Assembly (NCBI GenBank): GCA_963748625.1 | Contig: CAVVJT010000007.1 | Coordinates: 928,001-992,000 of the forward strand | DNA: 64,000 nt | Direction of reading: 5' to 3' | Source of the DNA: an uncultured Chloroflexia bacterium | Lineage (GTDB): Bacteria; Chloroflexota; Limnocylindria; Limnocylindrales; CSP1-4 | Shown: positions 1-34,132 of the stretch, piece after piece | Layout: each line of letters begins with the position of its first letter | How positions within the stretch are numbered: the stretch's first letter is position 1 | Position numbers and translations under genes: made by a program | The notes under the pieces: model-generated | Told to the model about the DNA's origin: nothing | Database searches by the model: none | The model's input: the letters and a program-made list of their open reading frames with translations, nothing else

Positions 1-1811
1 GTCCAGTCCACTGTCGCGGGCGAGGCGAGCGTGAAGCCCAGCGACACGGTGGCGCCGAGCCTGTCGCCGTCCTGCGGGAAGAAGACCTGGGCCGACGAGC
101 GGACATAGCCGAGGGCGCCGTAGACCGTGACCGGGCGGGTCACGGGTGCGCTGCGGTTGCCGGCGTCGTCCACCGCGCGCAGCTCGATCGTGTACGCACC
201 GTCGGGTGCCCACGAGCCGTCGGTCCGGCCGCTCCAGCGGACGGTCGCTCCGTCCGATCCGATGGCGGCCGACGCGCTTGCGACCTCCTCGTCACCAGCG
301 AGGACGGTGGCGACCAGGCGCCCACGCTCGCTGGCATCGGCCGTGAAGGAGATCCCGTCCGTGACGCCGTCGCCGTCAGGCGTGATCACGGGAACCGTCC
401 CGGAGGCAGCGGGGAGGTGGAGCTCCGGCGCCTCCGTGTCCACGGTGAGCTCCCCGCTGTCCTCCAGCGGTCCGTTGCCCCAGGCGTCGGAGGCCTCCAG
501 CACCCAGCGGTACGTGCCGTTCGCGGCGTGTGCGGGCGCCCACGTGAGTTCGGGGCGGTCGCCCGTGCCCGACGCCTCCGCTCGCTCGCTCCCGTTGCGA
601 TCCAGGATGCGCAGCGTCCAGTCCACGTCTTCCGACACCTGCAGGCGGACGGTGTAGCTGTCGCCGGAGTCGTCACCGTTGGGCGAGAAGATGCCCGCTC
701 CGTCCTCGATCTCCCAGAGGCGCGGCGCCGTGCCATCGCGCGGCGTGAGCGAGGAGCCGGCCATGACGCCCTCGACGCCCGTGTCGGTATGGATGCCGTA
801 GATGGGGCTGCCGTCGGGCGCCGGCTGCGGGTCCCGCCAGTCGACGCGGATCCTGTCGGTCGTGGCCAGGGTCGCAACCGGGCCGGCGCCGGCGACCAGG
901 CTGGCGGCCGAGTCATAGACGGGGGTGCCGTCCGCGCTGGGGCTGGCGTTGCCGGGGACGGTGATCGAGGCCGGGGCGCGCGAGGTGTCTGCGTAGGCGG
1001 CGCCGGTCACGTCGGTGGTGGTGAGGCTCATCCGGCCGGTGAGCGACCGGTAGTAGGAGCCGGGTCGCTCGGGGTCCATCGCGAACTGGAAGCCCGGATT
1101 GCGCTCCGAGGCGTAGATGGACACGTTGTCGTGGGCGTCGGGCGCGTTCTGCCAGTAGTCGGAGATGGACTGGCGCGTGGTGAACAGCGCGTCGATGTAG
1201 TAGTCGTCGTGGCTGTGGCCGTTGGCGATGACTGCGCGGGCGCCAGCCTTGAGGAACGCGGCGGCGTAGTTGTCCACGCGCTGCTTCGCGGTCGACAGGC
1301 TCGGCTCGGCCCGGCCGGGCTCGGAATTGCCCGAGGCGTAGCAGAGATGGAACAGCAGCACGACCGCATTGGGCGCCGGATCGAGATCCCGGATGGAGGG
1401 CTCGCCGTAGTACTTGACCTCGTCATCGGAGAGCTTGCCGTTCCCGTTGACGTCGTAGTTGAGCCCGAAGCCGTCCTTGGTCGTGTAGTTGGGGTCGAAG
1501 GTGTAGGGGCTCGGCCATCCGTTGCCGTGGCCCAGGTAGACGATGACCGAGGCGCCGGCGACCGCGCTCTTCACCTTCGACCATGTCGCGTTGGGGCTGT
1601 AGACCTTCACGACGTTGGTGGTGTAGCGGCGGGCTGCGGCGTAGAGCTGGTCAGCGTTGGAGCGATAGCGATCGGTCGTCGAGTGGGTGGCGCCAACGAT
1701 GATCGCAACCTTGGGGTTCGCTGCGGCAAACGCGGTCGGGGCGGACGCGGGAGCCACGGAGCCGAGGCCGGCGACGAGGATGGCGACGAGCGCGACGAGG
1801 ACCTTGCGCAA
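1..1811 (-). CDS. Secreted/surface protein: signal peptide, caspase/gingipain-like (clan CD-type) His-Cys domain, FlgD/Ig-like repeats; 3' end runs off the window
   Basis: Translated by hand (absent from the ORF track because it is open at the edge). TTG at 1811 with GGAG upstream; MRKVLVALVAILVAGLGSVAPASA signal; VIVYLGHGNG and VVLLFHLCYASG motifs; repeated FSPNGD/ITPDGD/FFPQDGD and WSGR..DG.Y FlgD-type motifs. Confidence 0.8.
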   Translation of the reverse strand, partial: MRKVLVALVAILVAGLGSVAPASAPTAFAAANPKVAIIVGATHSTTDRYRSNADQLYAAARRYTTNVVKVYSPNATWSKVKSAVAGASVIVYLGHGNGWPSPYTFDPNYTTKDGFGLNYDVNGNGKLSDDEVKYYGEPSIRDLDPAPNAVVLLFHLCYASGNSEPGRAEPSLSTAKQRVDNYAAAFLKAGARAVIANGHSHDDYYIDALFTTRQSISDYWQNAPDAHDNVSIYASERNPGFQFAMDPERPGSYYRSLTGRMSLTTTDVTGAAYADTSRAPASITVPGNASPSADGTPVYDSAASLVAGAGPVATLATTDRIRVDWRDPQPAPDGSPIYGIHTDTGVEGVMAGSSLTPRDGTAPRLWEIEDGAGIFSPNGDDSGDSYTVRLQVSEDVDWTLRILDRNGSERAEASGTGDRPELTWAPAHAANGTYRWVLEASDAWGNGPLEDSGELTVDTEAPELHLPAASGTVPVITPDGDGVTDGISFTADASERGRLVATVLAGDEEVASASAAIGSDGATVRWSGRTDGSWAPDGAYTIELRAVDDAGNRSAPVTRPVTVYGALGYVRSSAQVFFPQDGDRLGATVSLGFTLASPATVDW

Positions 1812-2012
1812 TGGGGGTTGGCTCCACGACAGGTGTGTGGTTCCACTGTCGGCGCGCGTGTGACGCGGTGCCATCGCGGGATGGTCCGGGTGGGCGACGG
1901 ACAGAGGGACCACCCCGATGGCGGAGGAGGTGGGTCAGGTATGGTGCCGCGTGGTTCGGGCCCGGGCCGGGTGGCGCGCGGGTGGTGCACGGGCGGTGCG
2001 CCCGGCGGTTCG

Positions 2013-2942
2013 TCAGCGGGCCTGAAGCGACCGCAGGAGGGCGGGTGCTGCGTCGGCGAACGCCTCCTGCCACGGGCGCATCGGCTCGCCCGACGGCAGC
2101 GGGGTGGGCTCCAGCACGGCCCACGCCGGTGGCGTGGACGCGCGCTGCCAGGTGCTGCCCGGGACGTCCACGACCTCCACGCCGATGCCCGTGGCTCGCA
2201 GGACCTCCCGTGCCCAGTCGGCCCTGGTCGCCCGGCCCCCGTTCACGAGATGGTGGATCCGCCAGCGCTCGCCGTCCCCGGCGACCGCGTCCGATCCGAC
2301 CAGCTCCACGATCGCCTCAGCAAGATCGGGGGTGTACGTGGGCACGCCGGTCTCGTCCGCGACGGCGCGCAGCGACTCACGGGCCTCGCGGGCACGGAGC
2401 GCGGCGCGGGCGATCTTCTCGGGGAAGTCGTTGCCGGGCGGGCCGTACAGCCACGACGTGCGCACGATGCCCAGCCTGCCGCGGGCCCCGTCCGCCTCGT
2501 AGGCCGCGATCGCGAGACGCTCGGCCTCCGCCTTGGCGGCGCCATAGGCGTTGATCGGGCGGCGCTCATCGTCCGGGGCATAGCCCAGGCCGTCGGTCCG
2601 GGTCCCATCGAAGACCTCGTTGGTGGAGATGACGACGAGGTCGATGCCCCGGGAGGCGGTGGCGCGGGCCACCTCCCCCACCGCGGTGCCGTTGCGCCGC
2701 ATGGCCAACGCCGGATCCTTCGCGCAGCCGTCCACGTCGGTCCAGGCCGCCGTCAGGATCACGACCTCGGGCCGCTCGCGGTCGAACAGCGCACCGGCGG
2801 ATGCCGCGGTGACCGCGTCGAGCTCGAACTCCGGCTGGTCCCAGCCGATGGGGCCGCGCGTGCCCGTGAACGGGGCGTCCTCCAGCGCTTCGACGAGCGC
2901 GCGGCCAAGGCGGCCGATGACGCCGATGACCGCGACCCGCAC
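2013..2942 (-). CDS. rfbD: dTDP-4-dehydrorhamnose reductase (RmlD)
   Basis: GTG start MRVAVIGVIGRLG; AAWTDVDGCA, ISTNEVFDG, YGAAK (YxxxK), RTSWLYG; downstream of rfbB. Confidence 0.9.
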   Translation of the reverse strand: MRVAVIGVIGRLGRALVEALEDAPFTGTRGPIGWDQPEFELDAVTAASAGALFDRERPEVVILTAAWTDVDGCAKDPALAMRRNGTAVGEVARATASRGIDLVVISTNEVFDGTRTDGLGYAPDDERRPINAYGAAKAEAERLAIAAYEADGARGRLGIVRTSWLYGPPGNDFPEKIARAALRAREARESLRAVADETGVPTYTPDLAEAIVELVGSDAVAGDGERWRIHHLVNGGRATRADWAREVLRATGIGVEVVDVPGSTWQRASTPPAWAVLEPTPLPSGEPMRPWQEAFADAAPALLRSLQAR

Positions 2943-2946
2943 CCGG

Positions 2947-4116
2947 TCAGGCCCCGGCGCCGGGCGTGTCGTCCGCCCTGTCGATCGCGGTGACCGCGGT
3001 GACCGCCTGCCCGCGGGCGAGCCGGTCCGCGTACTGCCGTGCGTAGTAGCTGTCCCAGTCGCCCCGCTTGGCGCCCTCGACCCAGTCCGCGTGTGCCCGG
3101 TACCACGCGACCGTCGCGGGCAGGCCCTCCTCGAAGTCCACCTGCGGGGTCCAGCCCAGCGCCGCAAGCTTCGCGCCGTCCATCGCATAACGGCGATCGT
3201 GGCCAGGCCGGTCCGGCACGGAGCGCACGAGCGACCAGTCGCGTCCGGTGGCGGCCAGCAGGCGGTCGATCACCTCCCGGTTCGGCAGCAGCCGCGCACC
3301 GGCCACGTTGTACGCCTCACCGGCCTCACCGTGGCGCAGCACGAACTCGATGCCGGCGGCATGGTCGGTCACGTGGAGCCAGTCGCGGACCTGCATGCCG
3401 TCGCCGTACATGGGCAGGTGCTCGCCCGCGAGCGCGTTGGTCGTGAACAGCGGGATGAGCTTCTCGGGATGCTGGTACGGGCCATACGTGTTGGAGCCGC
3501 GCGTGGTGACGACGTCGAGGCCGTAGGTGACGTGGTACGCGCGCACCAGCAGCTCCGAGCTGGCCTTGGCGGCGGCGTACGGGCTGCGCGGTGCGAAGGG
3601 GTCGGTCTCGACGGAGTGCCCGGCGGGGATGTCGCCGTAGACCTCGTCCGTGGAGACCTGCAGGAAGCGAGGGGCGGGCCTTGCCTGGCGCTCGCCGCGA
3701 GCGGCCCGGTCGGCCTCCGCGCGGATGGCCTCGAGCAGCACGTGGACGCCGATGACGCCGGTGCGCAAGAAGGCCTCCGGGTCGAGGATCGAGCGGTCCA
3801 CGTGGGTCTCGGCGGCCACGTTGACGACGGCATCGGCCTCGGCGACCAGCGGCCCCACGATCTCCGGGTCCGCGATGTCGCCGTGCACGAAGGTGAAGCG
3901 GGCGGCCTGTTCCGCGTCCTGCTCGACCTCCGCGAGGTTCGCGCGGTTGCCCGCGTACGTGAGCTTGTCGAGGACCGTGATCCGGGTCCCGTCGCGGCGG
4001 GCCAGGATCCGGCGGACCAGCTCCGAGCCGATGAACCCGGCGCCGCCGGTGACCAGAAGGTTGGCGCCGCCGCCGATGTGGTCGGCCAGGCCCGCGGTGT
4101 GGTCGGCCAGGCTCAC
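2947..4116 (-). CDS. rfbB: dTDP-glucose 4,6-dehydratase (RmlB)
   Basis: LVTGGAGFIG, DKLTYAGN, AAETHVDRSI, STDEVYG, YAAAK, PEKLIP, DRPGHDRRY. Confidence 0.95.
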   Translation of the reverse strand: MSLADHTAGLADHIGGGANLLVTGGAGFIGSELVRRILARRDGTRITVLDKLTYAGNRANLAEVEQDAEQAARFTFVHGDIADPEIVGPLVAEADAVVNVAAETHVDRSILDPEAFLRTGVIGVHVLLEAIRAEADRAARGERQARPAPRFLQVSTDEVYGDIPAGHSVETDPFAPRSPYAAAKASSELLVRAYHVTYGLDVVTTRGSNTYGPYQHPEKLIPLFTTNALAGEHLPMYGDGMQVRDWLHVTDHAAGIEFVLRHGEAGEAYNVAGARLLPNREVIDRLLAATGRDWSLVRSVPDRPGHDRRYAMDGAKLAALGWTPQVDFEEGLPATVAWYRAHADWVEGAKRGDWDSYYARQYADRLARGQAVTAVTAIDRADDTPGAGA

Positions 4117-4880
4117 GCGGGATCCCGCGGGCGCTCGACCGGCCTCGGCAGGCGGCCAGCCGCGTCGTCGATCTCGGCCATCTCTGCGGCGCGCAGGAGG
4201 CTGGGGACAGTGCCGGCGTCGGCCCAGTGCCCTTCGTAGACGGGCGCGAACAGGCGGCCGCCGGGGATGTAGTGGTTGAGGACGTCCGTGATCTCGAACT
4301 CCCCACGTCCCGACGGCGCCAGGCCCTCGATCACGTCGAATGCGTCCGGGCGGAGGAAGTAGACACCGATGGGGATCAGGTCGCTCTTGGGCACCTTGGG
4401 CTTCTCCTCGAAGCCGGCCACACGACCTGCCGCATCGAACTCCGCGACCCCGAAGCGTTCCGGATCGGGAACGCGGTAGAGCAGGGTGCCGGCACCGTGC
4501 TGGCCGTCCTCGAACTGGCGCGCGAGTGAGGCGAGCGGATCGCCGCGGAGGATGTTGTCGCCCAGGACCACGCAGAAGCTGTCGTCGCCGATGAAGTCCC
4601 GCGCGAGACCGATCGCGTGCGCGATGCCCAGCGCGCCACGCTGGTACCGGTAGGTGAGATCGAGACCGAAGTGCCGTCCGTCGCCGAGCAGCTCGACGAT
4701 GTCGCCGACGCTCTTGCCGCCGACGATGACCATGACCTCGCGGATCCCCATGCCCGCCAGGGTGTCCAGCGGGTAGTAGATCATCGGCCGGTCGTAGATC
4801 GGCAGGAGGTGCTTGTTGGTGACGATGGTCAGCGGGTAGAGGCGCGTTGCCGTACCGCCTGCCAGCACGAGGCCCTTCAT
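4113..4880 (-). CDS. rfbA: Glucose-1-phosphate thymidylyltransferase (RmlA)
   Basis: True start MKGLVLAGGTATRLYPLT at 4880; KHLLPIYDRPMIYYPL, FEEKP, RGEFEITD; GTGA overlap with rfbB. Confidence 0.93.
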   Translation of the reverse strand: MKGLVLAGGTATRLYPLTIVTNKHLLPIYDRPMIYYPLDTLAGMGIREVMVIVGGKSVGDIVELLGDGRHFGLDLTYRYQRGALGIAHAIGLARDFIGDDSFCVVLGDNILRGDPLASLARQFEDGQHGAGTLLYRVPDPERFGVAEFDAAGRVAGFEEKPKVPKSDLIPIGVYFLRPDAFDVIEGLAPSGRGEFEITDVLNHYIPGGRLFAPVYEGHWADAGTVPSLLRAAEMAEIDDAAGRLPRPVERPRDPA

Positions 4881-4907
4881 GGCGCGGAAGGGTAGCAGGG
4901 GTGCGGA

Positions 4908-5071
4908 GCCACGGATGCGGCGTCGGCCACGGATGCGGCGTCGGCCACGGATGCGGCGTCGGCCACGGATGCGGCGTCGGCCACGGATGCGGCGTCGGCC
5001 ACGGATGCGGCGTCGGCCACGGATGCGGCGTCGGCCACGGATGCGGCGTCGGCCACGGATGCGGCGTCGGC
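4908..5071. repeat. Perfect tandem array, 9 x 18 bp (GCCACGGATGCGGCGTCG)
   Basis: Counted directly; identical units with no spacers; just upstream of rfbA. Confidence 0.97.
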
Positions 5072-5110
5072 TGCTGGCACCCAGGCGCCCTCCCGCTCGG
5101 CGGGCCTTGC

Positions 5111-5218
5111 GTGCAGGATCCCGCTCAACCCGCCCGCTGGCAGGCACGGACGACCGTTCCGCGCCGAAATTCGAGGGATTTGTGCCGCTGGGCGGGCCAG
5201 GCGTGCAGCATCCTGCGC
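5111..5218. repeat. Dispersed palindromic (REP/REPIN-like) element, family 1, copy A
   Basis: Nested inverted arms GCAGGAT/ATCCTGC, GCCCGC/GCGGGC, GGCAC/GTGCC; 5111-5210 matches 6891-6990 ungapped at 74 of 100 positions (hand count). Confidence 0.85.
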
Positions 5219-5482
5219 ACAGTGCCCGGCCGGCGGCAGGCGGGCTGCCGGGCGGCGGGGTCCTCGGGCGGACCACAGGCCACAGGGCGGCGGCTCATGG
5301 CCTGGCTCCGCGCCGCCACACCATCGCTACCGCCGTCCCAGCGTCCCTATCACGAATGCGCGGGATACAAGGGCGGGCACTCGGCGACGTCCTTGCCGAG
5401 GCCCTGCCGCCCTTGAACCCGAGGAGATCATCCCGCTCGCGCCACTGCGACCCCGAGATCTCTTCTGATCCTCACAACGCGC

Positions 5483-6085
5483 TCAGCCGGCGAGATAGGA
5501 CTCGCACTCCGGCACGACCTTCGCGGCCGGACCGCACAGGACCCACGTGTCATGGACCACCAGCGTGTAGTGCCGGTCCTCCTGCGAATACGACACGGCG
5601 ACGGAGTCCCAACCCCCACCCTGGCTCGACGGCGAGGTACGGAAGCCGAGGAGAACCTCCGCACGGTCCGCGTACTCAGGGAAATCGCACCGCGTCGTCA
5701 TCCTCGCTCCGGTGACCGGAACGATGTCGCCGGCGATGCCGACAGGAGGGAAGCCCTCCCTCCCGAGGAATGCCTGGTCGTCGCCCTCCGGGACATACCG
5801 GACGCTCGCGCCGAGGAACTCCCAGTCGTCGTGCGTCCCGATCGTGTGATCGGGCCGCACGTCATCGATGACCACCTCGTCGCCCGCGGCAAGGCACAGG
5901 CGGACCGCCACCGTGTAGGTCTTGCCGGCGTTGACGGGATCGAGCGCGAGCGTCTGGTCGCCCCGCCCCTGTGCATTCGTGGAGAGCGGGCCCCCGCCGG
6001 CATCGTGTCGCGTGGGGCCATTCGCACAGGCCGCGAGCCCCGCTGCAATGACTACTGCCAGCGCAATACGAGTGAGCCGGGACAC
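5483..6085 (-). CDS. Hypothetical lipoprotein
   Basis: MSRLTRIALAVVIAAGLAAC lipobox; normal composition; 4 further Cys. Confidence 0.75.
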   Translation of the reverse strand: MSRLTRIALAVVIAAGLAACANGPTRHDAGGGPLSTNAQGRGDQTLALDPVNAGKTYTVAVRLCLAAGDEVVIDDVRPDHTIGTHDDWEFLGASVRYVPEGDDQAFLGREGFPPVGIAGDIVPVTGARMTTRCDFPEYADRAEVLLGFRTSPSSQGGGWDSVAVSYSQEDRHYTLVVHDTWVLCGPAAKVVPECESYLAG

Positions 6086-6163
6086 AGACGCGCTCCCCCT
6101 TCGTGATGACGACCAATCCTATGCCGTCCTGAACGTATCCCGCACATTCGTGACGGGCCAGCG

Positions 6164-6820
6164 TCAGAGCACGATCAGGCCGCTCACCGGTGGCAACCTT
6201 CCGGATCGCAGCGCCTTCGCAATTGCCGGACCGTCCAGCGGCAGGAGCAGGCGCAGGGCCTCGCGCTCGTGACTGAGCACCTCCTCGTTGTGGCGGGAGC
6301 GGGCTACGGCAAGGATGACGATCTTCCCGCGGCGGTCGTCCCGCAGCTTGAGCTGCAACCGGCGCTCGAGGGCCTGGACGTCGCCGAGGCGACTCTCTGC
6401 GTCAACGAACGCCAGCTCTGCGAGGTCGGAGATGGTGGCATCCCACGCTCGAAGGTCACCGGGCATGGGCAGCCCGACCTCGCGTGCCACCTGCAGCGGC
6501 GCGGCGGGAAGGATCCCGAGCCGCTCGATGAGCCGCTGCTGGCCGGCGTCGCGAATGGGACTCCCCTCCGGGAACAGCCGCACGGACAGTGACAGCCCGA
6601 GCGCCCGAGCAGATCTGGCCACCGCGCACAACGAGGGGTCAGCGTTCTCCCCGCGTTCGAGGCGACTCAGCTGCGACGACGAAATCCCAGCGGCACGAGC
6701 GACAGCCGGCTGACTGATGCCAAGCGCGATCCGGGTGTTGTGCAGCTCGTCGGCCATGCCCGATATGACGCGACGAGCGTCCTCGTCACCGAGCTCGACC
6801 GGACCTCTGCGCACAGACAC
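6164..6820 (-). CDS. XRE-type helix-turn-helix protein fused to a putative PD-(D/E)XK/DUF559-like C-terminal domain
   Basis: HTH: RIALGISQPAVARAAGISSSQLSRLERG; C-terminus REVGLP..GDLRAWD...VDAESRLGDVQALERRLQLK. Start uncertain: GTG 6820 has a CATCAT -10-like hexamer 6 nt upstream; the ORF extends to 6847. Confidence 0.8.
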   Translation of the reverse strand: MSVRRGPVELGDEDARRVISGMADELHNTRIALGISQPAVARAAGISSSQLSRLERGENADPSLCAVARSARALGLSLSVRLFPEGSPIRDAGQQRLIERLGILPAAPLQVAREVGLPMPGDLRAWDATISDLAELAFVDAESRLGDVQALERRLQLKLRDDRRGKIVILAVARSRHNEEVLSHEREALRLLLPLDGPAIAKALRSGRLPPVSGLIVL

Positions 6821-6890
6821 GACACGATGATGGCCGCCGTCGCTCACCGCCCGCTTACACGCCTGTCGACAACCGCTGGGCGGGCGTTGT

Positions 6891-6998
6891 GGGCAGGATT
6901 GCGCGCAGGCTGCCCGCTGGCAGGCACGAACGACCCTGCGGCCACTGGATCCGAGGGGTTTGTGCCGCTGTGCGGGCAGATTGCGCAGGATCCCTCAC
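6891..6998. repeat. Dispersed palindromic element, family 1, copy B
   Basis: Direct repeat of 5111-5218 at an exact offset of 1780 nt; shares GCCCGCTGGCAGGCACG and TTTGTGCCGCTG blocks. Confidence 0.85.
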
Positions 6999-7049
6999 GT
7001 GAGGCCCGCCGGGCGGGCCGCCGCAGGAGCCACGGGCCACCGACAGGGC

Positions 7050-7293
7050 CCGCGGGCGCGAGGTGGGCCGCGGGCGCGAGGTGGGCCGCGGGCGCGAGGT
7101 GGGCCGCGGGCGCGAGGCGCGGGCGCGAGGTGGGCCGCGGGCGCGAGGTGGGCCGCGGGCGCGAGGTGGGCCGCGGGCGCGAGGTGGGGCCGCGGGCGCG
7201 AGGGGGCCGCGGGCGCGAGGTGGGCCGCGGGCGCGAGGTGGGCCGCGGGCGCGAGGTGGGCCGCGGGCGCGAGGGGGCCGCGGGCGCGGGGGG
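7050..7293. repeat. Imperfect tandem array, about 13-14 x 18 bp (CCGCGGGCGCGAGGTGGG), G-rich
   Basis: Counted directly; a few units carry small indels; ends just past the mreC stop. Confidence 0.95.
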
Positions 7294-7308
7294 CCGGGCG
7301 CGGGCCCC

Positions 7309-8274
7309 TTACGGCTTCGCGGTCGGCTTCACCTTGGGCGTGGGCTCGGGCGTGTAGCAGGGCACCTCGCCCTCGGGCACTGTTCCCTCCGTGCCGCACG
7401 GGACGGCCTGTTCCTCGATGGGCGGCAGCCCGCCCACGTAGTCGGTGATCACCAGCGCAAGCTCGAACGAGTCGAGGTTCGCGGCCGGTGCGAGGAATGC
7501 TGTCTGGACAACAGCGTTCGCATCCCGCTCGACGTCCACCACGGAGCCCACGATGAGCCCCTTCGGGTACGGCGAACGGATGCCGCCATCGACCGAGATG
7601 CCCGCGGTGAACACCTCCTCGTCGATCGCGATCTCCACGGCCGAGTCGATGTTGCGCATCACGAGCACGCCGCCCGCCTGGCCCACGATCTCGCCCTGGG
7701 CCCGGGAGTCCACGAGCTGCCCCACGACGGTGGAGGAGGCATCGCTGACCAGCGTCACCTTGGCGAACGTGGGACCGACGTCGGTGACCCGGCCGGCCAG
7801 CGCGCCGCCCTTGACCACCACGGTGTCGTTGAGCTCGATACCGTCCTCGGTGCCCTTGTCCACGGTCACGATCCGCCGGTTCTCCAGCAGCTCGCGACCG
7901 ATGACGCGGACCGCCACCGTCTCGTGGTCGAAGCCGGACTGGAGCTGGAGGAGCGCCGACATCTCGTCGTTCTCCGACCGCAGCCCCTCCAGCCGGGCGT
8001 TCTCGTTCCCGAGGCGCTCGTTCTCATCCCGCAGGGCGGCGTTCTCCGAGCGCAGCTGGTCGATCTCGCCGATGGCGGCGAAGACGCCGTCCACCCCGTA
8101 GGCCACCGACGCCAGCGCACCCTGGAACGGACGCAGCGCATACGACAGGCCCCGCTGCAGGTCCTGGACGTAGGGGTTGGCGGAGAACGCCATGAGCAGC
8201 AGCGTGATCGCGATGAGGATCGCGAACGTGATTCCCCGCCGACGGCCCTGCTTGCTGCTGACGATCGCGTTCAC
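7309..8274 (-). CDS. mreC: Rod shape-determining protein MreC
   Basis: N-terminal TM helix, coiled coil (LRSENAALRDENERL), VDKGTEDGI, YPKGLIVG; follows mreB. Confidence 0.93.
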   Translation of the reverse strand: MNAIVSSKQGRRRGITFAILIAITLLLMAFSANPYVQDLQRGLSYALRPFQGALASVAYGVDGVFAAIGEIDQLRSENAALRDENERLGNENARLEGLRSENDEMSALLQLQSGFDHETVAVRVIGRELLENRRIVTVDKGTEDGIELNDTVVVKGGALAGRVTDVGPTFAKVTLVSDASSTVVGQLVDSRAQGEIVGQAGGVLVMRNIDSAVEIAIDEEVFTAGISVDGGIRSPYPKGLIVGSVVDVERDANAVVQTAFLAPAANLDSFELALVITDYVGGLPPIEEQAVPCGTEGTVPEGEVPCYTPEPTPKVKPTAKP

Positions 8275-12552: not shown

Positions 12553-12648
12553 GGGTTGCCCTCTCGTGTCGATGCCTGGCCGGTGCCTGTCGCGCTCCGT
12601 CGTGGGCCAGTATCCGCCAGTAGCGTCTCCGCGCGCCCGGAGTTGCGC

Positions 12649-12878
12649 CAGCGGCGTTCTCCGCGGCCATCCTCCCGCCAGGCGGGCCCTGCGTCAGCGG
12701 CGTTCTCCGCGGCCATCCTCCCGCCAGGCGGGCCCTGCGTCAGCGGCGTTCTCCGCGGCCATCCTCCCGCCAGGCGGGCCCTGCGTCAGCGGCGTTCTCC
12801 GCGGCCATCCTCCCGCCAGGCGGGCCCTGCGTCAGCGGCGTTCTCCGCGGCCATCCTCCCGCCAGGCGGGCCCTGCGT
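12649..12878. repeat. Perfect tandem array, 5 x 46 bp (CAGCGGCGTTCTCCGCGGCCATCCTCCCGCCAGGCGGGCCCTGCGT)
   Basis: Units start at 12649, 12695, 12741, 12787 and 12833; each has a CCCGCC-A-GGCGGG inverted repeat; no spacers. Confidence 0.97.
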
Positions 12879-13006
12879 GCACAACTTCGCGCAGTCCTCC
12901 CGCCCAGCGGGCAGCCAAGGCCGGATTCGGCGCAATCCGGGTGCCTCCGCCCGCGTGGCGGCAGATCTGCACAGGATTCTGCAGACAGCGCCCGCTGGGC
13001 GGGAGG
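12877..13006. repeat. Dispersed palindromic element, family 1, copy C (opposite orientation), plus a 17-bp perfect inverted repeat
   Basis: Aligns to the reverse complement of copy A (GTGC..., CCCGCCCAGCGG, TTCGGCGC, GGAT.CTGC); CCTCCCGCCCAGCGGGC 12896-12912 is inverted at 12990-13006. Confidence 0.7.
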
Positions 13007-13072
13007 CCGAGCGCCACACCAGTCGAAGCGAGCGCCAGGCCAGACGATTGGAGCGCCGCGTACCCTTCACCC

Positions 13073-16415: not shown

Positions 16416-17510
16416 CTACTGCAGCGAGGACGCGGCCGCGTAGGCCAGCAGCACCTGGAGCCCGTTGAACGCGGCGTGCAGGCCGATCGGCGCCCACAGC
16501 GACCGGCGCGCCAGGAAGACCCAGCCCAGCACCACCGCCACCGGCAGGAGCGCCACGAACGAGAAGAGCGCGCGCTGGATCCCCTCTGCGAAGGACGCAT
16601 CGAACAGCGTCACCACGTGGGCGAACGCGAAGAACACGGCACCCCGGATGATCGCGGGTCGGGCGCCGTACGCCCGCGCCCATGCCGTCGTGGTGAAGCC
16701 GCGGAAGAACAGCTCCTCGCCCAGGGGCGCCAGGATCGCCGCGGCGGCAAGGTTCAGCAGCAGGCCGCCGGCGTCCACCGACGGCGGCAGCGGTGACGGC
16801 GGCGGGGTGAGGAACACGCTCAGCACGAGGCTCAGCGCGATCGTCATCACGAGCACCGGGACCGCGAGGACCGCGCCCACCGCGAGCTCGCGCAGGGCGG
16901 CGGCCGCCGGCTGGCCGAGGCCCATGTCACGCCAGGTCAGCGCCCCCTGGGACACCACGAAGGTGCGGATGACGAAGACGTAGACCAGGGCGGTGATCGC
17001 GAGCGACAGCGTGGTGGCCGCCGGCGCCGACGCATCCAGGCCGATCGCCGAGAGGGGGGCCAGCACCACGACCGTCAGCAGCAGCGTGATCACCACGATC
17101 GTGACGAATGCCAGGACCGGCGACGGTCCCCTGTAGGCGAGATCGGTCCGGCTCGACCGCTCCACCGCCTGGGACCCGGTGGCGGCCATGAGGCCCAGCG
17201 AGAGCGCGACGATGCCGAGCAGGAACAGCCAGCGCGCGGCACCCGATCCCGAGCCGGCCGCACCGATGGAGACGAAGACCGCGCCACCGCCGATCAGCGT
17301 GAGCAGCCAGGCGACGAGGTAGAGGCCGGGGACGCGTCGGCCCTCGAGCGAGAAGATGCCCGGCGTGGCAGGCGAGGCCGGGGGCGCGTCGGGCTTGTCG
17401 CGCGTATCGGGCGCGTCGCGCGTGTCGGGCGCATCCCGCGTGTCGAGCGCGGCGGGCGCCGGGTCGTCGGCAGGCGAGGCCGGGGGCGCGTCGGGCTGGA
17501 GGTCGTCCAC
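16416..17510 (-). CDS. CPBP (Abi/CAAX type II) intramembrane metalloprotease
   Basis: APLGEELFFRG, FAFAH, PIGLHAAFN; low-complexity DTRDAP-repeat N-terminus; start approximate. Confidence 0.88.
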   Translation of the reverse strand: MDDLQPDAPPASPADDPAPAALDTRDAPDTRDAPDTRDKPDAPPASPATPGIFSLEGRRVPGLYLVAWLLTLIGGGAVFVSIGAAGSGSGAARWLFLLGIVALSLGLMAATGSQAVERSSRTDLAYRGPSPVLAFVTIVVITLLLTVVVLAPLSAIGLDASAPAATTLSLAITALVYVFVIRTFVVSQGALTWRDMGLGQPAAAALRELAVGAVLAVPVLVMTIALSLVLSVFLTPPPSPLPPSVDAGGLLLNLAAAAILAPLGEELFFRGFTTTAWARAYGARPAIIRGAVFFAFAHVVTLFDASFAEGIQRALFSFVALLPVAVVLGWVFLARRSLWAPIGLHAAFNGLQVLLAYAAASSLQ

Positions 17511-18312: not shown

Positions 18313-19287
18313 TCAAGGGCCGGTACGGGGGCCGTCGCCGGATCCCTGCACCTCACGCGGCACCGCGATCATCGTCCAGGCGGACGCCCTCACGCCCGTG
18401 GCCACGGATGCAAGCACGAGACTGCCCAGCCAGATGGCCACCCAGACCAGCACAGCAGCAATCGCGATGAGCGGCCCACGCTCCTCGACCAGGATGTCGC
18501 GTACCCGGGTCCAGCCGATCGCCGCCGCCACCAGCGACGGCCCAAGCAGGAACGCCACCAGCAACTGGCCGCCGATCGCCGTCCCGAGCACCCTGAGCGG
18601 CCGGCGGACGACCTCGTACCAGCCAAGGACCCACGCCGCACCCACGCTCCGGCGCTCCAGCACGAGGCGCCGCACGCCCATCGCCGCCGCGGCATCCGCG
18701 AGCAGCCACACGAGCAGCAGTGCGGCCAGGTGGAATGGCATCGCCCCGACGATCCGGACCGGCAGCGGCGTCAGCAGGTCGTCGGGGAGGACGAGCTCGC
18801 GATAGACCACGTCGTACACGTGCTGTGCCGAGAGGGCCATCACCACGACCACCGGACCCAGGGCAAGCAGTCGGATCACCGTCACGCGGAGGGTTCCGGG
18901 CGCCCCCTCGAGCGAGATCGCCTCGAGCGCGCCCTCGTCGGCAGCGGCCTCGAGCGTCACGCCGATCCCGTACCGCTCCGCCCATGCGCCCAGGATCACG
19001 GCACCGGTCACCAGCGCGAACCCGCCGAGCGTCCCGATGGCCGCCAGCAGGACCAGGCCCATCGTTGGCACGCCGAACACGAGGGTCGTCAACGGCGCTC
19101 CGAGCATGGTCTGGATGCCCGTGGGCGTGGGCAGCACGAGGATCGGCCAGCCGACCACCACGAGGCCGCCGCCGGCGAGGAAGCCGAGCAGGCCCAGGGC
19201 CCACGCGAGCGGACGCACGAGCGTGGCGACGATCGCCGTCGCCCATGCCTCGCCGATGGGGAGCCGCCGCGCGGCGGCCCCGGTCAC
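18313..19287 (-). CDS. Hypothetical integral membrane protein
   Basis: Multiple hydrophobic helices; in an operon downstream of UPF0182. Confidence 0.75.
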   Translation of the reverse strand: MTGAAARRLPIGEAWATAIVATLVRPLAWALGLLGFLAGGGLVVVGWPILVLPTPTGIQTMLGAPLTTLVFGVPTMGLVLLAAIGTLGGFALVTGAVILGAWAERYGIGVTLEAAADEGALEAISLEGAPGTLRVTVIRLLALGPVVVVMALSAQHVYDVVYRELVLPDDLLTPLPVRIVGAMPFHLAALLLVWLLADAAAAMGVRRLVLERRSVGAAWVLGWYEVVRRPLRVLGTAIGGQLLVAFLLGPSLVAAAIGWTRVRDILVEERGPLIAIAAVLVWVAIWLGSLVLASVATGVRASAWTMIAVPREVQGSGDGPRTGP

Positions 19288-19329
19288 GGTGTCGCCGAAG
19301 CCCCGGTCACGGTGTCGCCGAAGCCCCGG
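19277..19329. repeat. 23-bp tandem duplication spanning the UPF0182 stop and the next start (GCCCCGGTCACGGTGTCGCCGAA x2)
   Basis: Copies at 19277-19299 and 19300-19322, plus 7 nt of a third. Confidence 0.9.
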
Positions 19330-22300
19330 GGGAGGCCGTCAGCTCGGTCAGGCGGGTGAGCGCCGCACCCACAAGGTCCAGCTCCGCCTCGTAGCGGGCA
19401 AGGTCGCCCGCGCGGAGGGCCTGCTGCGCCAGCTCGTAGTGCTCGTTCGCGTATGCGATGAGGCCGTCAACATCGGTGGGCAGGCCACCGGGCGGGGCCG
19501 TGGTGGGCTGCGCGGTGGGTCCGGGTGTCGCGGTGGGGCCGGGTGTCGGCGTCGGAGTGGGCGTGCCGTTGCCCTCCCCCTGGAGCGCGAGGAGCTTGGT
19601 GAGCGACTCGCCCAGGGTGTCGCCCCAGACGATTGTGGTGGGGCTGGCCACCACGATCTTCTGGAACTCCGGGAACGCCGCCGACGTGGACTGCAGGTAC
19701 ACCGGTTGCAGGTAGAGCAGCGAGTCACCCACCGGGACCACGATCAGGTTGCCGCGGATGACCTGCGATCCGGACTGGTTCCAGAGTGAGATCTGGGCGG
19801 AGATCGACGGGTCCTGGTCGATGCGGGCCTCGATCTGGGCCGGTCCGAAGATGGTGGTGTCGGTCGGGAAGCGGTATGCCACGACCTGGCCGAGATTCGG
19901 GCCATCATTGCGGGCGGCAACCCACGCGATCATGTTCGGGCGGGCCTTGGCGATCATCGGCTGGAGCAGCAGGAACTCCGCCTTCGGCTCCTCCGGCATG
20001 CGCATCACCACGTAGTACGCCTCGGAGGGGAGGCTCTGCTCGTTGGTCTGCGCTTCGGGGACCGTCCACAGGTCGGTGTTGTTGAAGAACGTCAGCGGCT
20101 GCGTGACGTGGTAGGAGCCGAACATCCGGGTCTGGACGTTGAACTGCTCCTCGGGCGTGCGCAGGTGGGCCGCCAAGCCATCGGGCAGGTCTTCGATCGG
20201 CTCGAACACGCCCGGGAAGACACCGCTCCAGGCGCGGATCAGCGGGTCGGACGGATCCGCAATGAACAGCCGCATGCTGCCGTCGTAGGCGTTCATCGTG
20301 ATCTTGACGCTGTTGCGGATGTAGTTGAACGTCTCGCCGGCCAGCCCGGAGCCCTCTCCGAGGTCCCAGCCACTGAACCAGTTGGCGTTGGGGAAGTCAC
20401 TGCTGATCGTGTAGGCGTCCTGGACGTAGACGAGACTGCCCTCGGCGTCGATGACGAGGTACGGATCCTTGTCGTAGCGCAGGAACGGCGCAATCCGGTC
20501 GAGCCGCTCGTGGAGCGTGCGGTGGAACAGCAGCTGGCTCTCGGCCGTGATCTGGTCCGAGATGAGCATGTCCAGGTCTTTGAACCGCGCGGCGAAGAGG
20601 AGCCGCGACAGGGTGGTGTCAAGCGGGACGCCGTTGGTGCCGGACCAGCGGGTGGTCTCGTCCACCGTGGTGGTGCCCTGCGTGCGCGGGTAGTCGAACT
20701 CGGCCTGGCGGGCGCGGACCACGACGTAGCGGTCGTCCACCTCGCCGAAGTAGATGCGCGGCTGCTTGATCTCGGGCGCGCCATTGGTGGACAGCGGCGG
20801 CAGGTCCTTGATCCAGAGGTTGGGCTGGCCCTCCTGGGTGACCTCGTTGACCGGGACCATCGCCATGCCAATGCCGTGCGTGTAGATGATCCGCTGGTTG
20901 ACCCAGCCCGTGGCCTGCTGGTTCTTCTCGATCGCCATCTCGCGACCCGAGAGCATCACCTGGCGCAGATCACCGTTCACGTAGTAGCGGTCGGTGTCCA
21001 CGTCATTGAAGTCGTAGTACTGGCGGACCGTCTGGAGCTGGTCGAGCGTGACCTGCAGCGGACGGTAGTCCCACAGGCGGGCGTTGGTGAACGTGTCTGC
21101 CTCGGACCGCAACGCCTCCTCGGTGAGGGGCGCGGTCCCGCCGTAGTCCCGCGACACCCAGTCGTCCAATCCAAAACCGAGTTGGGTCATCGCGATGTTG
21201 TTGGCGATGTACGTCTGTTCCTGGGCGTAGGTGTTGGGGTCCACGGTGAGGCGCTGGATGGCTTCCGGGTACACCCGGCCCAGCACGATCGACGCCGAGA
21301 ACCAGATGATCATCACGGCGCCCAGCGGCCACATCCAGCGGGTGAACGCGCCGCCCACGAGCAGGGCCGCGGCCAGGGCCGAGAGCACCATGAGCACGTC
21401 GTAGGCCATGAAGCGGGCGTTGGCGTCGGTGTAGGACACGCCGACCGCAACACCCTGGGTGCTGTAGACCAGCTCCCACTTGTCGAGCTGGTAGCCCACC
21501 GCGACCGTGAGCAGGTACAGGCCCGCGAGGATGGCGAGGTGCACGCGGACGCGGGTGACGAAGACCTCGCCTCCGCGGCTGGTCTGGAGGAAGTAGCGCG
21601 CACCTGCCACGGCGAGGGCCGCGAGCAGGAGGCCGTTCGCCGTCGCCTGGGCGAAGCGCAGGAAGGGCAGGTCGAACAGGAAGAAGCTGATGTCCTGGCC
21701 GAAGACGGGATCGGTGACGGCCTCCGTGGGCGAGAAGGGCACACGGTTGACCCACAGCAGGAGCGTCTCCCACGTGCCCGACACGGTGCCGGCGACGCCG
21801 AGCGCGATGACCACGGCCATCCCGGCGATCAGCCACTTGCCCACCGGGACGAGGTCGGGGATGTCGTCAGGGTTGACCGAGATCGACTCCATGGACGGGC
21901 CGCGGCCCGAGGGGCCGCCCGGGAAGCCGCCCGCCGTGCGCGCCTGGCGCTCGGCCTGGCGCTGCGTCTCGGTCCAGCGCGCGGCCCACTCCTTGAGGCG
22001 GCCGGGCTTGTCGGGATCGGCCGGCGGGACGAGTCGTCCGGCCAGCCAGAGGTTGAGCCAGAGGAACAGCAGGGCGACCAGGAGCGTGGCTGCGAACAGG
22101 CCCACCTGGACGCCGATCCGTGTCCAGAAGACCGAATCGAAGCCGATGGTGCCGTACCAGATGGCATCGGTCCAGATGTCCACGATGGTGCCGGCGAGCA
22201 GGAAGAACAGCACGATGGCGGCAACCACGGCCACGATGGCGCCCTGCCGGACCATGGTCTTGCGCGAGGGCGGCGTCATGCCACCTCCGCTGCCCCGACC

Positions 22301-32463: not shown

Positions 32464-32539
32464 GTCGGACGGGACCCCACGTTTGGATCGTGGCCAGAGC
32501 AGGTCGGACGGGACCCCACGTCCGGATCGTGGTCAGAGC
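32464..32539. repeat. 37-bp direct duplication (period 39) overlapping the darA stop
   Basis: GTCGGACGGGACCCCACGTYYGGATCGTGGYCAGAGC at 32464 and 32503. Confidence 0.85.
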
Positions 32540-34042: not shown

Positions 34043-34132
34043 GTCGCGGGGCCCGTCAGCCGTGAGGCGGTGGGGCCCGACGGCCGACTGAGTCGCGGGG
34101 CCCGTCAGCCGTGAGGCGGTGCCCGTCAGCCG
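34031..34132. repeat. 42-bp direct duplication (period 49) between the convergent GGDEF and tmk stops
   Basis: ACGGCCGACTGAGTCGCGGGGCCCGTCAGCCGTGAGGCGGTG at 34031 and 34080; GCCCGTCAGCCG occurs three times. Confidence 0.9.

Follow-up and report, generated by a model that had tools for sequence, protein, structure and literature searches.

Related Systems

RAYT genes are described as short, diverse genes that are present in a single copy per paralog, with each paralog having its own repeat type and with palindromic repeats of its own family usually on either side of it (PMC3337134; PMC5581495; bioRxiv 10.1101/2022.05.22.493013). According to the same sources, doublets of REP sequences form long hairpins, and the repeats are also found at other intergenic sites. 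Conserved motifs named for RAYT proteins are HUH and Y (PMC3337134). In a narrow literature search, all papers listed for palindromic sequences of the REPIN/RAYT kind dealt with REP or REPIN repeats and RAYT genes, and no paper naming Limnocylindria was among the matches listed for palindromic repeats of this group.

The second group of related proteins includes the restriction endonucleases BamHI and OkrAI. The catalytic set of BamHI consists of E77, D94, E111, and E113, and OkrAI has the same E...D...E-x-E set; this set is described as rare, with Glu replacing Lys at the last position (PMC3025578).

The locus analyzed here is located in a 64-kb stretch of DNA, herein referred to as the window. 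Like the REP/REPIN-RAYT systems, it includes a gene flanked by its own palindromes, the palindromes form long hairpins, and the repeats are also found at other intergenic sites. Unlike these systems, the encoded protein combines an XRE-type HTH with a predicted restriction-fold domain and is not a HUH/Y1 transposase, the repeats often run on into perfect tandem arrays, and the host belongs to Chloroflexota, not to Proteobacteria. REP/REPIN repeats have tens to hundreds of dispersed copies per genome; three remote copies were seen here within the analyzed regions of ±10 kb.

Organization of the Locus

The order of features is rfbA-like gene, array 1, element A, lipoprotein ORF, XRE-HTH gene, element B, array 2, and mreC. 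Every item of the architecture described in the first-pass annotation was found, at or near the positions first reported. The left border is formed by the rfbA-like nucleotidyltransferase gene (4113..4880, minus strand; Pfam NTP_transferase, E 6.3e-53) and the right border by mreC (7309..8274, minus strand; Pfam MreC, E 1.3e-27). As in that annotation, no transposase was seen in the window, either in the sequence or by Pfam, and no target-site duplication was visible by eye bordering A, B, or the 19-nt repeat described below.

The lipoprotein-like ORF (5483..6085, minus strand, 200 aa) has the N-terminal lipobox L-A-A-C in its translation and no Pfam family. Only 6 homologous proteins, the window's own included, were found at E ≤ 0.001. 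The ORF is bracketed by the arms of a 19-nt inverted repeat (pair I4, 95% complementary) located at 5350..5368 and 6135..6153; this repeat has 2 matches in the window vs. 0.01 expected. In loci L001, L002, and L032, where the same site holds a homolog of the XRE-HTH gene, no tblastn match to the lipoprotein gene was found. Therefore, this gene is not a shared cargo, the role first proposed for it; judged by sequence comparison, it is a lineage-specific insert outside the conserved unit.

Palindromic Elements and Tandem Arrays

Elements A and B are composite imperfect palindromes located at 5082..5244 (nhmmer E 1.6e-34 and 9.3e-33 for the plus and minus strands, respectively) and 6862..7024 (E 2.1e-36), the latter lying upstream of the HTH gene, about 40 nt from its start. 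A third and best-preserved copy of this family, element C (12847..13010; E 4.8e-35), is intergenic and lies beside unrelated genes, with no HTH-nuclease gene adjoining. A (5093-5236) and B (6873-7016) are 73% identical over 144 nt, ungapped and in the same orientation, which confirms the similarity of 74/100 reported previously. The previously suggested length of about 105 bp corresponds to a core of 105 nt with 79% identity (E 4.9e-20), but the family profile aligns 5082-5244 and 6862-7024, and the elements are therefore about 160 nt long.

All three elements are composed of short CCCGC(N3)GCGGG-type palindromes spaced by about 44 nt. A perfect palindrome with 8-nt arms, GGCCCGCC-G-GGCGGGCC, is located at 7003-7019 in element B. 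Element C contains four short palindromes 41-48 nt apart and has a self-complementary BLAST match of 156 nt. For TTTGTGCCGCTGNGCGGGC, 2 matches were found in the window vs. 0.27 expected by chance. Element C, the 19-nt inverted repeat, and the build from short palindromes had not been seen in the first-pass annotation.

Both A and B fold as long imperfect hairpins. The z-scores of DNA folding are -4.61 for B, -4.75 for C, and only -1.83 for A, for which 11 of 200 shuffled sequences fold equally well. Thus, the palindromic nature initially ascribed to both elements stands for B, whereas A is a weak palindrome. By the Smith-Waterman palindrome score in a 240-nt window, A and B are near the background (14.5-16 vs. 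a median of 12), so the counts of long palindromes given below are conservative.

The elements could also act as RNA, being terminators, insulators, or small RNAs around a monocistronic gene. Long hairpins are predicted on both strands, the strand-dependent z-scores of RNA folding for A and B lie between -2.6 and -6.4, and B folds 18 kcal/mol better on the plus than on the minus strand, a hint of G-U pairs. This explanation appears very improbable, given that the strand preference of A is opposite to that of B and that the short DNA palindromes forming the units vary in their half-sites in a protein-like manner. Against it, too, Rfam gave 0 matches at gathering thresholds in the whole window, and no terminator-like site was found in 4800-7400. 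A promoter consensus scan of 4800-7400 also found nothing.

Three tandem arrays adjoin the elements. Array 1 (4908..5071, repeat family D2) is located on the outer side of A and consists of 9.1 copies of 18 nt with 100% matches (TRF), as expected from the 9 × 18 bp initially described. Array 2 (7050..7296, family D1) is located on the outer side of B and has 93% matches and 6% indels; its period of 18 nt is that noted before, but its copy number is 14.2 rather than about 13 (TRF). Array 3 (12644..12878, 46 nt × 5.1; TRF) lies beside element C and runs straight into it. Each unit of array 3 contains one CCCGCCAGGCGGG site and has a partial nhmmer match to the end of the element. The terminal palindrome of the element was found inside the array units of window element C, L055, and L066. 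The CCCGC...GCGGG site is absent from the units of arrays 1 and 2. Many short tandem repeats were also found by TRF elsewhere in the window.

The HTH-Nuclease-Like Protein

The XRE-HTH gene (6164..6820, minus strand) encodes a protein of 218 aa. The ORF is open to 6847; the GTG at 6820 was taken as the start since it fits the 218-aa homologs. Only HTH families were found by Pfam in the 227-aa protein, namely a Cro/C1-type HTH at residues 32-88 (HTH_31, E 5.1e-11; HTH_3, E 1.7e-07), with no HUH/Y1 transposase. No Pfam or NCBIfam family matched the C-terminal half, and the PADLOC and NCBIfam matches are confined to the HTH part. In a profile search against PDB sequences, the full protein matched only HTH proteins, and the C-terminal domain had no meaningful match, the best one (E 0.57) being a histidine kinase. 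For residues 93-227, the ESM Atlas features were solely unnamed Chloroflexota clusters or clusters bearing HTH families. Foldseek with the full-length model found only HTH proteins, among them HipB, ClgR, C.AhdI, and SinR; the best HTH matches are XRE proteins of the restriction-modification (R-M) controller and antitoxin types. The C-terminal domain was therefore folded alone.

The AlphaFold2 models have a pLDDT of 88.8 for the full protein and 86.2 (pTM 0.82) for the domain alone. In the C-terminal half, DSSP assigns an alpha-beta-beta-beta-alpha-beta order to residues 101-181 (H101-111, E119-125, E134-140, E145-151, H157-170, and E176-181), and the domain-only model has the same order. Most of the top Foldseek matches of the domain are PD-(D/E)XK proteins, including YaeQ, McrC, Bax1, Hjc, BamHI, OkrAI, EndoMS, SfsA, and Mus81, with BamHI and OkrAI at ranks 7 and 27; the best E is 0.058, with probability up to 0.96 and TM-scores of 0.33-0.46, and no match reaches E 0.001. 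Thus, for the nuclease fold proposed previously, a restriction-endonuclease-like topology is predicted, but the Foldseek support is weak.

Conservation was analyzed in 61 representatives with 34-47% identity to the window protein. E123, D136, D156, and Q158 are the same in all of them, and at least 90% of the sequences keep E149, E151, and K167. Strand 2 carries D136, and strand 3 carries (D/E)149-x-E151; these positions are invariant or at least 90% conserved in 35, 36, and 61 sequences. The acidic C-terminal pattern that was noticed at first sight is supported in the form of a conserved E...D...(D/E)xE motif. The distant HTH-nuclease paralog in L008 has VEETK, containing E-T-K. The models suggest a C-terminal domain with PD-(D/E)XK-like topology and a BamHI-type acidic set; its nuclease activity is putative.

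The domain resembles BamHI and OkrAI in the predicted PD-(D/E)XK core and the E...D...E-x-E set. It differs from them by the absence of detectable sequence homology, by weak structural scores, and by the N-terminal HTH; moreover, no methyltransferase gene was found by Pfam beside the HTH gene in the window, where the neighbors are the lipoprotein ORF, the rfbA-like gene, and mreC. GGATCC/GGATTC-like motifs were noticed in the spacers of the elements, but their targeting by the BamHI-like domain was considered and rejected because G[GA]AT[CT]C has nearly equal densities beside the family genes and elsewhere in intergenic regions (0.99 vs. 1.00 per kb).

Archaeal Hjc proteins are the most numerous Foldseek matches, with at least 10 among those listed, and likewise have a small PD-(D/E)XK domain. 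However, they score TM values of only 0.30-0.39, differ in the last catalytic residue, and lack an HTH. Long palindromes can extrude as four-way junctions.

The R-M controller (C) proteins and XRE antitoxins or repressors share with this protein the XRE-type HTH, the predicted dimer, and palindromes upstream of the own gene. In contrast to C proteins and XRE antitoxins, the HTH is fused here to a conserved domain of predicted nuclease fold, and the sites, which come in 2-9 phased copies, are found also at remote loci and on the downstream side of the gene.

A homodimer was predicted with a score of 0.76, as compared to 0.01 for the best of three controls. A score this high was attained by 20 of 30 proteins whose structures are same-chain pairs and by 1 of 23 solved as single chains, counts that are only rough since the alignment was the authors' own. 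At least 68% of the contacts agree between the runs, the partner pLDDT is at least 78, and the interface is formed by residues 15-54 and 69-98. This result may merely reflect likeness to XRE dimers that have already been solved.

Distribution and Inheritance of the Family

The protein belongs to a large unnamed family, for which 1194 clusters at 50% identity were found at E ≤ 0.001. The hosts are Limnocylindria-type Chloroflexota with several paralogs per genome. The paralogs track synteny on a tree of 79 proteins, from which L029 and L064 were omitted as broken or short. The synteny groups form clades, and the two big groups, with 15 and 14 loci, cluster far beyond shuffled labels. The rfbA-mreC site holds a homolog in three related genomes (L001, L002, and L032), with the gene on the opposite strand and with homologs of both rfbA and mreC next to it. 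The HTH proteins of this site are 46-53% identical, whereas RfbA is 84-86% identical. By tblastn, only one family gene was found in the 64-kb window. As far as can be judged from the sequences, the gene is single-copy in the window and vertically inherited.

These data bear on the explanation of the locus as a selfish mobile unit of the transposon or homing-element kind, with the elements as its ends and moving together with the gene. The near-identical copies flanking the gene in L078 and L055, the inverted gene orientation in the window relative to the three other genomes, and the low identity of the same-site HTH proteins as compared to RfbA are in its favor. Additionally, the gene of L078 falls among the g2 orthologs, yet its flanks are not syntenic with theirs, a possible exception to the fixed position. 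However, the three same-site homologs indicate that the unit is not a recent transposon, and the clustering of the synteny groups, the single family gene in the window, the remote element copies without the gene, and the lack of a visible transposase or target-site duplication also argue against movement. Thus, the mobile unit suggested earlier is unlikely in the usual sense of the term.

Association of the Gene with Repeats

The association was analyzed in 80 gene-containing loci (±10 kb around each) and the window, 1.22 Mb in total. Intergenic regions of at least 150 nt were counted, and the intergenic control relied on a crude gene caller based on GC3, whose coverage was 83%. Arrays were found in 16 of 57 gene-adjacent regions vs. 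16 of 329 others (p 7e-7), long palindromes in 7 of 57 vs. 7 of 329 (p 0.0016), and an array or a long palindrome in 22 of 57 vs. 22 of 329 (p 2e-9); since many loci are orthologous, the p-values of these enrichments, as well as that for recurrent short palindromes (10 of 56 vs. 12 of 324 regions, p 3.5e-4), overstate independence. Four of the latter 12 regions are remote element copies or lie beside distant paralogs. Per region, arrays are 6 times commoner in the gene-adjacent intergenic regions than in the others, and the enrichment persists with mean intergenic lengths of 382 and 395 nt, respectively.

Repeat pairs were defined as local rows of at least 80 nt with a gap of 300-3000 nt. The gene is bracketed by 9 of the 34 such rows, in 8 of the 81 loci, and one more row brackets the distant paralog in L008. 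The flanking copies are near-identical in L078 (91.5% over 177 nt) and L055 (92.3% over 169 nt), and full element copies were found downstream of the gene as well in L078, L055, L004, and L029. The repeat pair in L005 was rejected as an element, as it covers tandem pilin-like genes. The pairs in L011 and L021 look like the L005 case.

When A and B were compared with the 80 loci by BLAST, no homologous element was found, and the element sequences differ between genomes. The only match of the window element profile in another locus is located 149 nt downstream of the L003 gene. In the analyzed 1.22 Mb, the profile of the L078/L055 element matches only beside family genes, namely in L055, L078, L076, and L044. 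Copies away from the gene do exist: besides window element C, they were found at 13472-13627 in L056, with an array of 23 nt × 8.5, and at 13638-13771 in L066, also with an array.

In total, a nearby repeat feature (array, long palindrome, or flanking pair at the thresholds of this study) was found in 38 of the 81 loci and in none of the other 43. Thus, the proposed association of homologs with flanking repeats is upheld by the enriched palindromes and arrays and by the bracketing pairs in 8 loci, but for about half of the loci the gene is carried without such elements.

The repeats and the gene could have no functional link, with REP-like palindromes and minisatellites being common in Limnocylindria intergenic DNA and the gene flanks being roomy. 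The arrays or palindromes in 22 of the 329 other regions, the short tandem repeats of the window, and the location of element C beside unrelated genes are consistent with this. It is nevertheless quite improbable in view of the enrichment at equal mean length, the 8 loci with the same repeat on either side of the gene, the restriction of the L078/L055 profile to family genes, the single outside match of the window profile beside the L003 gene, and the covariation of sites with the recognition helix described below.

Palindrome Arms and the Recognition Helix

The palindrome arms vary among paralogs and change with the HTH recognition helix in 20 of the 81 loci, which were chosen by eye, and this covariation is confounded by relatedness. 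L037 and L060 have a common helix, SHARVGRFERG, and common arms, GAACGC; likewise, L044 and L080 share the helix SHSKVGRFERS and the arms GGAACAC. In L078, with the helix SHQQLSRFERG, TGGTCCGGC is found six times with a spacing of 71-74 nt. At the same site, the arms are CCCGCC in the window, CTCGCC in L001, and GTCGCC in L002. The idea that each paralog has its own palindrome family thus gains from arms that differ and follow the helix in these 20 loci, but relatedness limits what can be drawn from it. In L078, L028, and L037, the palindromic sites are located 80-370 nt upstream of the start, with a spacing of 68-74 nt.

Such regularly spaced upstream sites would fit an autoregulated transcription factor, for which the palindromes are operators, the restriction-fold domain is a non-catalytic sensor or oligomerization module, and the arrays arise passively, by replication slippage in permissive DNA between genes. 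The dimer predicted through the HTH half, the R-M controller and antitoxin XRE proteins among the best HTH matches, the stable inheritance of the gene, and the half of the loci without large repeats point in the same direction. However, a scaffold domain is hard to square with the acidic tetrad, K167, R162, and Q158 being kept across 61 divergent representatives. The full element copies downstream of the gene in four loci, the copies kilobases away with arrays of their own (window element C and L056), and the sixfold excess of arrays beside the gene at equal mean region length also argue against simple autoregulation, which we consider a possible explanation with a chance well below even.

Proposed Model

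The best explanation, to which we assign a probability of roughly 45%, is a vertically inherited gene for a dimeric XRE-HTH protein fused to a restriction-endonuclease-like domain with a BamHI-type E...D...(D/E)xE site, located amid its own cognate palindromes in a partnership similar to REP/RAYT. Elements A, B, and C would be old and diverged runs of units, each consisting of a short palindrome and a spacer, and the perfect arrays at their edges would be young outgrowths of the process that built the elements. The dimer would bind the short palindromes via its HTH, a step supported by the covariation of sites and helices and by the predicted dimer; the protein probably recognizes the palindromes that surround its gene. 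Nicking, cutting, or fork blocking at the bound sites might then lead to local repeat expansion, and occasionally a unit might be copied to another intergenic site. The gene would stay in place, and the lipoprotein ORF would be a later unrelated insert within its own 19-nt inverted repeat.

By analogy, a REP/RAYT-like role is plausible. The comparison with RAYT made in the first-pass annotation, with an enzyme other than HUH, holds for the flanking palindromes and for the absence of a HUH/Y1 domain by Pfam, but repeats were found at only about half of the loci. A wider reading, according to which the Limnocylindria palindromes are a second, independently evolved REPIN-like replicator, bound and cut by dedicated and vertically inherited nucleases that combine an HTH with a BamHI-type restriction fold, with several paralogs in each genome coevolving with their respective palindromes and with the units dispersing and growing into minisatellite arrays at their edges, is conceivable, if rather doubtful.

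To date, the textbook example of bacterial repeats kept by a domesticated single-copy enzyme is REP/RAYT. If the model is true, a parallel system built on an unrelated fold in an uncultured phylum of soil and freshwater would mean that such partnerships evolve repeatedly. The large unnamed family of 1194 clusters would gain a function, and minisatellite-like arrays in high-GC bacterial genomes would gain a concrete cause. The paired sites and recognition helices form a natural series of HTH specificity variants.

Organization of the rfbA-mreC Region

The order of features that the first-pass annotation had proposed between rfbA and mreC was borne out by the sequence at 4000-8200, TRF, and a repeat finder. 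An rfbA-like gene (4113-4880, minus strand; Pfam NTP_transferase, E = 6.3e-53) is followed by array 1 (4908-5071; 18 nt x 9.1, 100%; TRF), element A (about 5082-5244), a lipoprotein-like ORF (5483-6085, minus strand) having a lipobox but no Pfam family, the XRE-HTH ORF (6164-6847, minus strand; HTH_31, E = 5.1e-11), element B (about 6862-7024), array 2 (7050-7296; 18 nt x 14.2, 93%; TRF), and mreC (7309-8274, minus strand; Pfam MreC). Both elements were placed by the repeat finder and a profile of all three element copies (A, B, and C, below). Most homologs of the HTH protein are 218 aa long, with a start that corresponds to the GTG at 6820 in the window ORF; therefore, 6164-6820, the extent annotated earlier, is likely the true gene.

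Elements A and B are 73% identical across 144 ungapped bases according to the repeat finder, with a core of 79% identity across 105 nt (E = 4.9e-20). Both had been described as palindromic; in DNA folding, B is a convincing hairpin (z = -4.61) but A is a poor one (z = -1.83). An RNA role for the elements fits less well than the DNA-binding reading developed below. Element C (12847-13010), a third member absent from the earlier annotation, was found as a 156-nt self-complementary match between oxidoreductase-like and DinB-like genes, named by eye from their translations. The profile built from A, B, and C retrieved exactly these three full copies in the 64 kb.

Element C abuts a 46-nt array (12644-12878; 46 nt x 5.1; TRF). 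The short palindrome that terminates the element, CCCGCCAGGCGGG, is present in every unit of this array, and four such palindromes lie 41-48 nt apart within C. Array and element together therefore form one series of nine sites at intervals of about 44-46 nt. Thus, A, B, and C are best seen as old, diverged runs of units consisting of a short palindrome and a spacer, and the perfect arrays as young runs. Arrays 1 and 2, whose units lack the site itself, begin 20-30 nt beyond the outer palindromes of A and B. Further short tandem repeats were found in the window by TRF at 34017-34156 (21-25 nt x 4.9), 17382-17458 (9-27-nt units), 19277-19329 (23 nt x 2.3, 100%), and 32464-32539 (39 nt x 1.9).

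The lipoprotein-like ORF is surrounded by a 19-nt inverted repeat (5350-5368 / 6135-6153) with one mismatch (2 matches in the window vs. 0.01 expected). Relatives of this ORF comprise 6 proteins at E <= 0.001, its own product included, and it is absent from three homologous loci sharing the rfbA-mreC site (L001, L002, and L032). The ORF and its inverted repeat resemble a small, separate insertion into the unit, and inspection by eye showed no target-site duplication at this repeat.

Predicted Structure of the HTH Protein

Pfam, NCBIfam, and PADLOC matches are confined to the N-terminal XRE-HTH domain. In an AlphaFold2 model built with 35 homologs (pLDDT 88.8), residues 101-181 (numbered on the 227-aa ORF) are predicted to form a helix, three strands, a helix, and a strand; the C-terminal domain modelled alone has the same order (pLDDT 86.2, pTM 0.82). 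A Foldseek search with this domain alone gave nothing at E <= 0.001, and its list consists mainly of PD-(D/E)XK proteins (YaeQ, McrC, Bax1, Hjc, BamHI, OkrAI, EndoMS, SfsA, and Mus81; TM 0.33-0.46). The PD-(D/E)XK fold proposed earlier is thus favored by the predicted topology and the composition of this list, but every match lies above E = 0.001.

In the model, strands 1, 2, and 3 carry E123, D136, and (D/E)149-x-E151, respectively. Among 61 cluster representatives with 34-47% identity to the window protein, E123, D136, D100, D156, Q158, R162, and D170 are invariant, and E149, E151, K167, and R169 are conserved at >= 90%. A distant paralog in locus L008 reads VEETK, which includes E-T-K, the usual ExK form. 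According to PMC3025578, BamHI (E77, D94, E111, E113) and OkrAI have an E...D...ExE motif with a rare Glu replacing the usual Lys. The window protein appears to have this motif and the predicted fold in common with them; however, homology to them is not detectable, and its gene has no methyltransferase neighbor in the window. GGATCC was tested as a target of the BamHI-like domain and dropped.

A homodimer was predicted with a score of 0.76, against 0.01 for the best control. Of proteins solved as one-chain pairs, 20 of 30 scored this high, as did 1 of 23 solved as single chains; these counts are rough because our own alignment was used. Contact agreement across the dimer runs was at least 68% and partner pLDDT at least 78. 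The predicted interface lies in the HTH half (residues 15-54 and 69-98). These models support a homodimer, although solved XRE dimers may explain the pass.

Distribution and Inheritance of the Family

A word-indexed search found 401 proteins at E <= 0.001, the few named ones belonging to 'Candidatus Limnocylindrales'. A profile of the C-terminal domain matched 1194 clusters at 50% identity (E <= 0.001); among the matches listed (150 of the 1194), the domain mostly lies at about 84-217 in a protein of about 217 aa. In species-representative genomes, 197 stretches encode a relative, and 80 were kept as loci (L001-L080, gene +-10 kb; 81 with the window), with two or three each from several assemblies. 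The best relative is only 53% identical; therefore, the window's own genome is not among them. The loci are labelled Chloroflexota except for L055, L056, and L073, whose contigs are binned as Vicinamibacterales, Binatia, and Verrucomicrobiia; mis-binning or transfer could explain this. Distant paralogs with the same HTH and nuclease-fold architecture were found in L008 (about 18530-19400, plus strand; hmmsearch E = 3e-08), L073 (about 3899-4600, minus strand; E = 7.7e-16), and L034 (6219-6980, plus strand; E = 3.6e-17).

The family gene is mostly not mobile. Neighboring ORFs define syntenic sets of 13-14 loci, and the two large synteny groups cluster far beyond shuffled labels on a tree of 79 proteins (L029 and L064, broken or short, were left out). 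In L001, L002, and L032, too, a homolog is located between the rfbA-like gene (84-86% identical) and mreC (65-82%). The tree and the occupied site speak against a mobile unit, and a transposon-like cassette fits less well than vertical inheritance. Identity among the HTH proteins at this site is only 46-53%, and they therefore evolve much faster than their neighbors; the window protein groups weakly with those of L002 and L001 (SH-aLRT 84). The HTH gene lies on the strand opposite to its neighbors in these three loci, and on the same strand in the window. L078 is a possible relocated gene: it falls inside the g2 clade, its flanks have nothing in common with g2 loci, and 177-nt copies with 91.5% identity bracket it.

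Repeats beside the Family Gene

Across 1.22 Mb, 34 rows of local repeat pairs (>= 80 nt, gap 300-3000) were found, and 9 rows in 8 loci (L004, L016, L029, L032, L038, L055, L078, and the window) bracket the family gene. A further row in L008 (18301-18419 / 19419-19537; inverted, 119 nt, 94%) brackets the distant paralog, which is also bracketed by a 79-nt direct pair (98.7%). The L073 paralog has a 266-nt palindrome just upstream, and the L034 paralog has recurrent short palindromes downstream. Repeat pairs in L005 (1978-3070) are due to three tandem small ORFs with a common hydrophobic C-terminal half, Flp-pilin-like by eye, and unrelated to the finding; the pairs in L011 (about 2172-3102) and L021 (about 757-1726) are probably of this kind too, inspection having covered L005. 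Self-complementary matches at contig ends in L029 (1-5510; 5683 nt, 88%) and L052 (12-3652; 3740 nt, 86.5%) may be fold-back artefacts of assembly or genuine large inverted duplications, and were excluded from the counts.

Of the tandem arrays (period >= 9, >= 3.5 copies, >= 70 nt), 28 lie at most 700 nt from the gene, spread over 24 of the 81 loci, with a further 32 elsewhere (2.63 vs. 0.30 per 10 kb). Because repeats favor intergenic DNA, intergenic regions >= 150 nt were compared, with genes called by a GC3-based rule (83% coverage). Gene-adjacent regions exceed other regions in arrays (16/57 vs. 16/329, p = 7e-7), long palindromes (7/57 vs. 7/329, p = 0.0016), either of these (22/57 vs. 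22/329, p = 2e-9), and recurrent short palindromes (10/56 vs. 12/324, p = 3.5e-4), p-values to be read with partly orthologous loci and a crude gene caller in mind. Of the 12 other regions in which short palindromes recur, four are remote element copies or neighbor distant paralogs. The flanking association noted in the first-pass annotation thus extends to the family as an enrichment, but 43 of 81 loci have none of these repeat features. Coincidence fits less well than a link between gene and repeats.

At the same site in L001, the whole layout of the window is repeated with unrelated sequences: upstream, a 26-nt x 10.2 array with CTCGCC/GGCGAG-rich DNA; downstream, more such DNA and then a 19-nt x 3.9 array. 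There are 10 copies of the hexamer in 524 nt of flank vs. 62 in the remaining 20,133 nt.

Sites, Recognition Helices, and Arrays

The flanks of 20 hand-picked loci contain short palindromes with 6-9-nt arms and a 3-5-nt center, often 72 or 144 nt apart. Within one tight clade, the recognition helix SHARVGRFERG accompanies arms GAACGC (L037, L060), SHSKVGRFERS accompanies GGAACAC (L044, L080), SHQQLSRFERG accompanies TGGTCCGGC (L078, three sites either side of the gene), and SRSQLCRFEHG accompanies GTCCCG (L076). Homologs at the rfbA-mreC site have arms CCCGCC (window), CTCGCC (L001), and GTCGCC (L002). Co-evolving protein-site pairs would look like this, although some of the pattern could stem from relatedness alone. 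The L078/L055 element profile matches only beside family genes (L055, L078, L076, and L044); outside its own locus, the window profile matches once, 149 nt downstream of the L003 gene (E = 0.0043).

Sites are spaced 68-74 nt apart in L078 (9714-9875, 10614-10780) and upstream of the L037 and L028 genes, and 134-144 nt, about double, in L004, L031, and L080; the window family has about 44-46 nt instead. The spacing of about 72 nt in L078 and L037 is roughly seven helical turns and suggests phased binding on one DNA face.

Remote element copies are C in the window, L056 13472-13627, and L066 13638-13771. Arrays abut C (46 nt x 5.1) and the L056 copy (23 nt x 8.5); arrays go with the elements as well as with the gene. 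The array unit of three unrelated loci includes the terminal palindrome, or half of it, of the adjoining element (window 12644-12878, L055 1087-1200, L066 9613-9790), as if arrays grow out of the element edge.

Comparison with Known Systems and Proposed Mechanism

In REP/REPIN-RAYT systems, according to PMC3337134 and abstracts of related papers, a single-copy gene is typically flanked by its own gene-specific repeat type, and the repeats are also dispersed. The window system appears to behave alike in these features; however, Pfam found no HUH/Y1 enzyme, which defines that family. A thin literature search found no prior description of an HTH and restriction-fold protein paired with palindromes.

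The strongest alternative is a simple autoregulator, with operators that drift and slip. The best reading of the sequence comparisons and models is a vertically inherited, dimeric HTH and restriction-fold protein that would bind short palindromes around its own gene, for which the support is indirect. At the bound sites it might nick, cleave (perhaps extruded hairpins), or merely block replication forks. Such action would drive duplication of the units and, through occasional copying, may spread them elsewhere.
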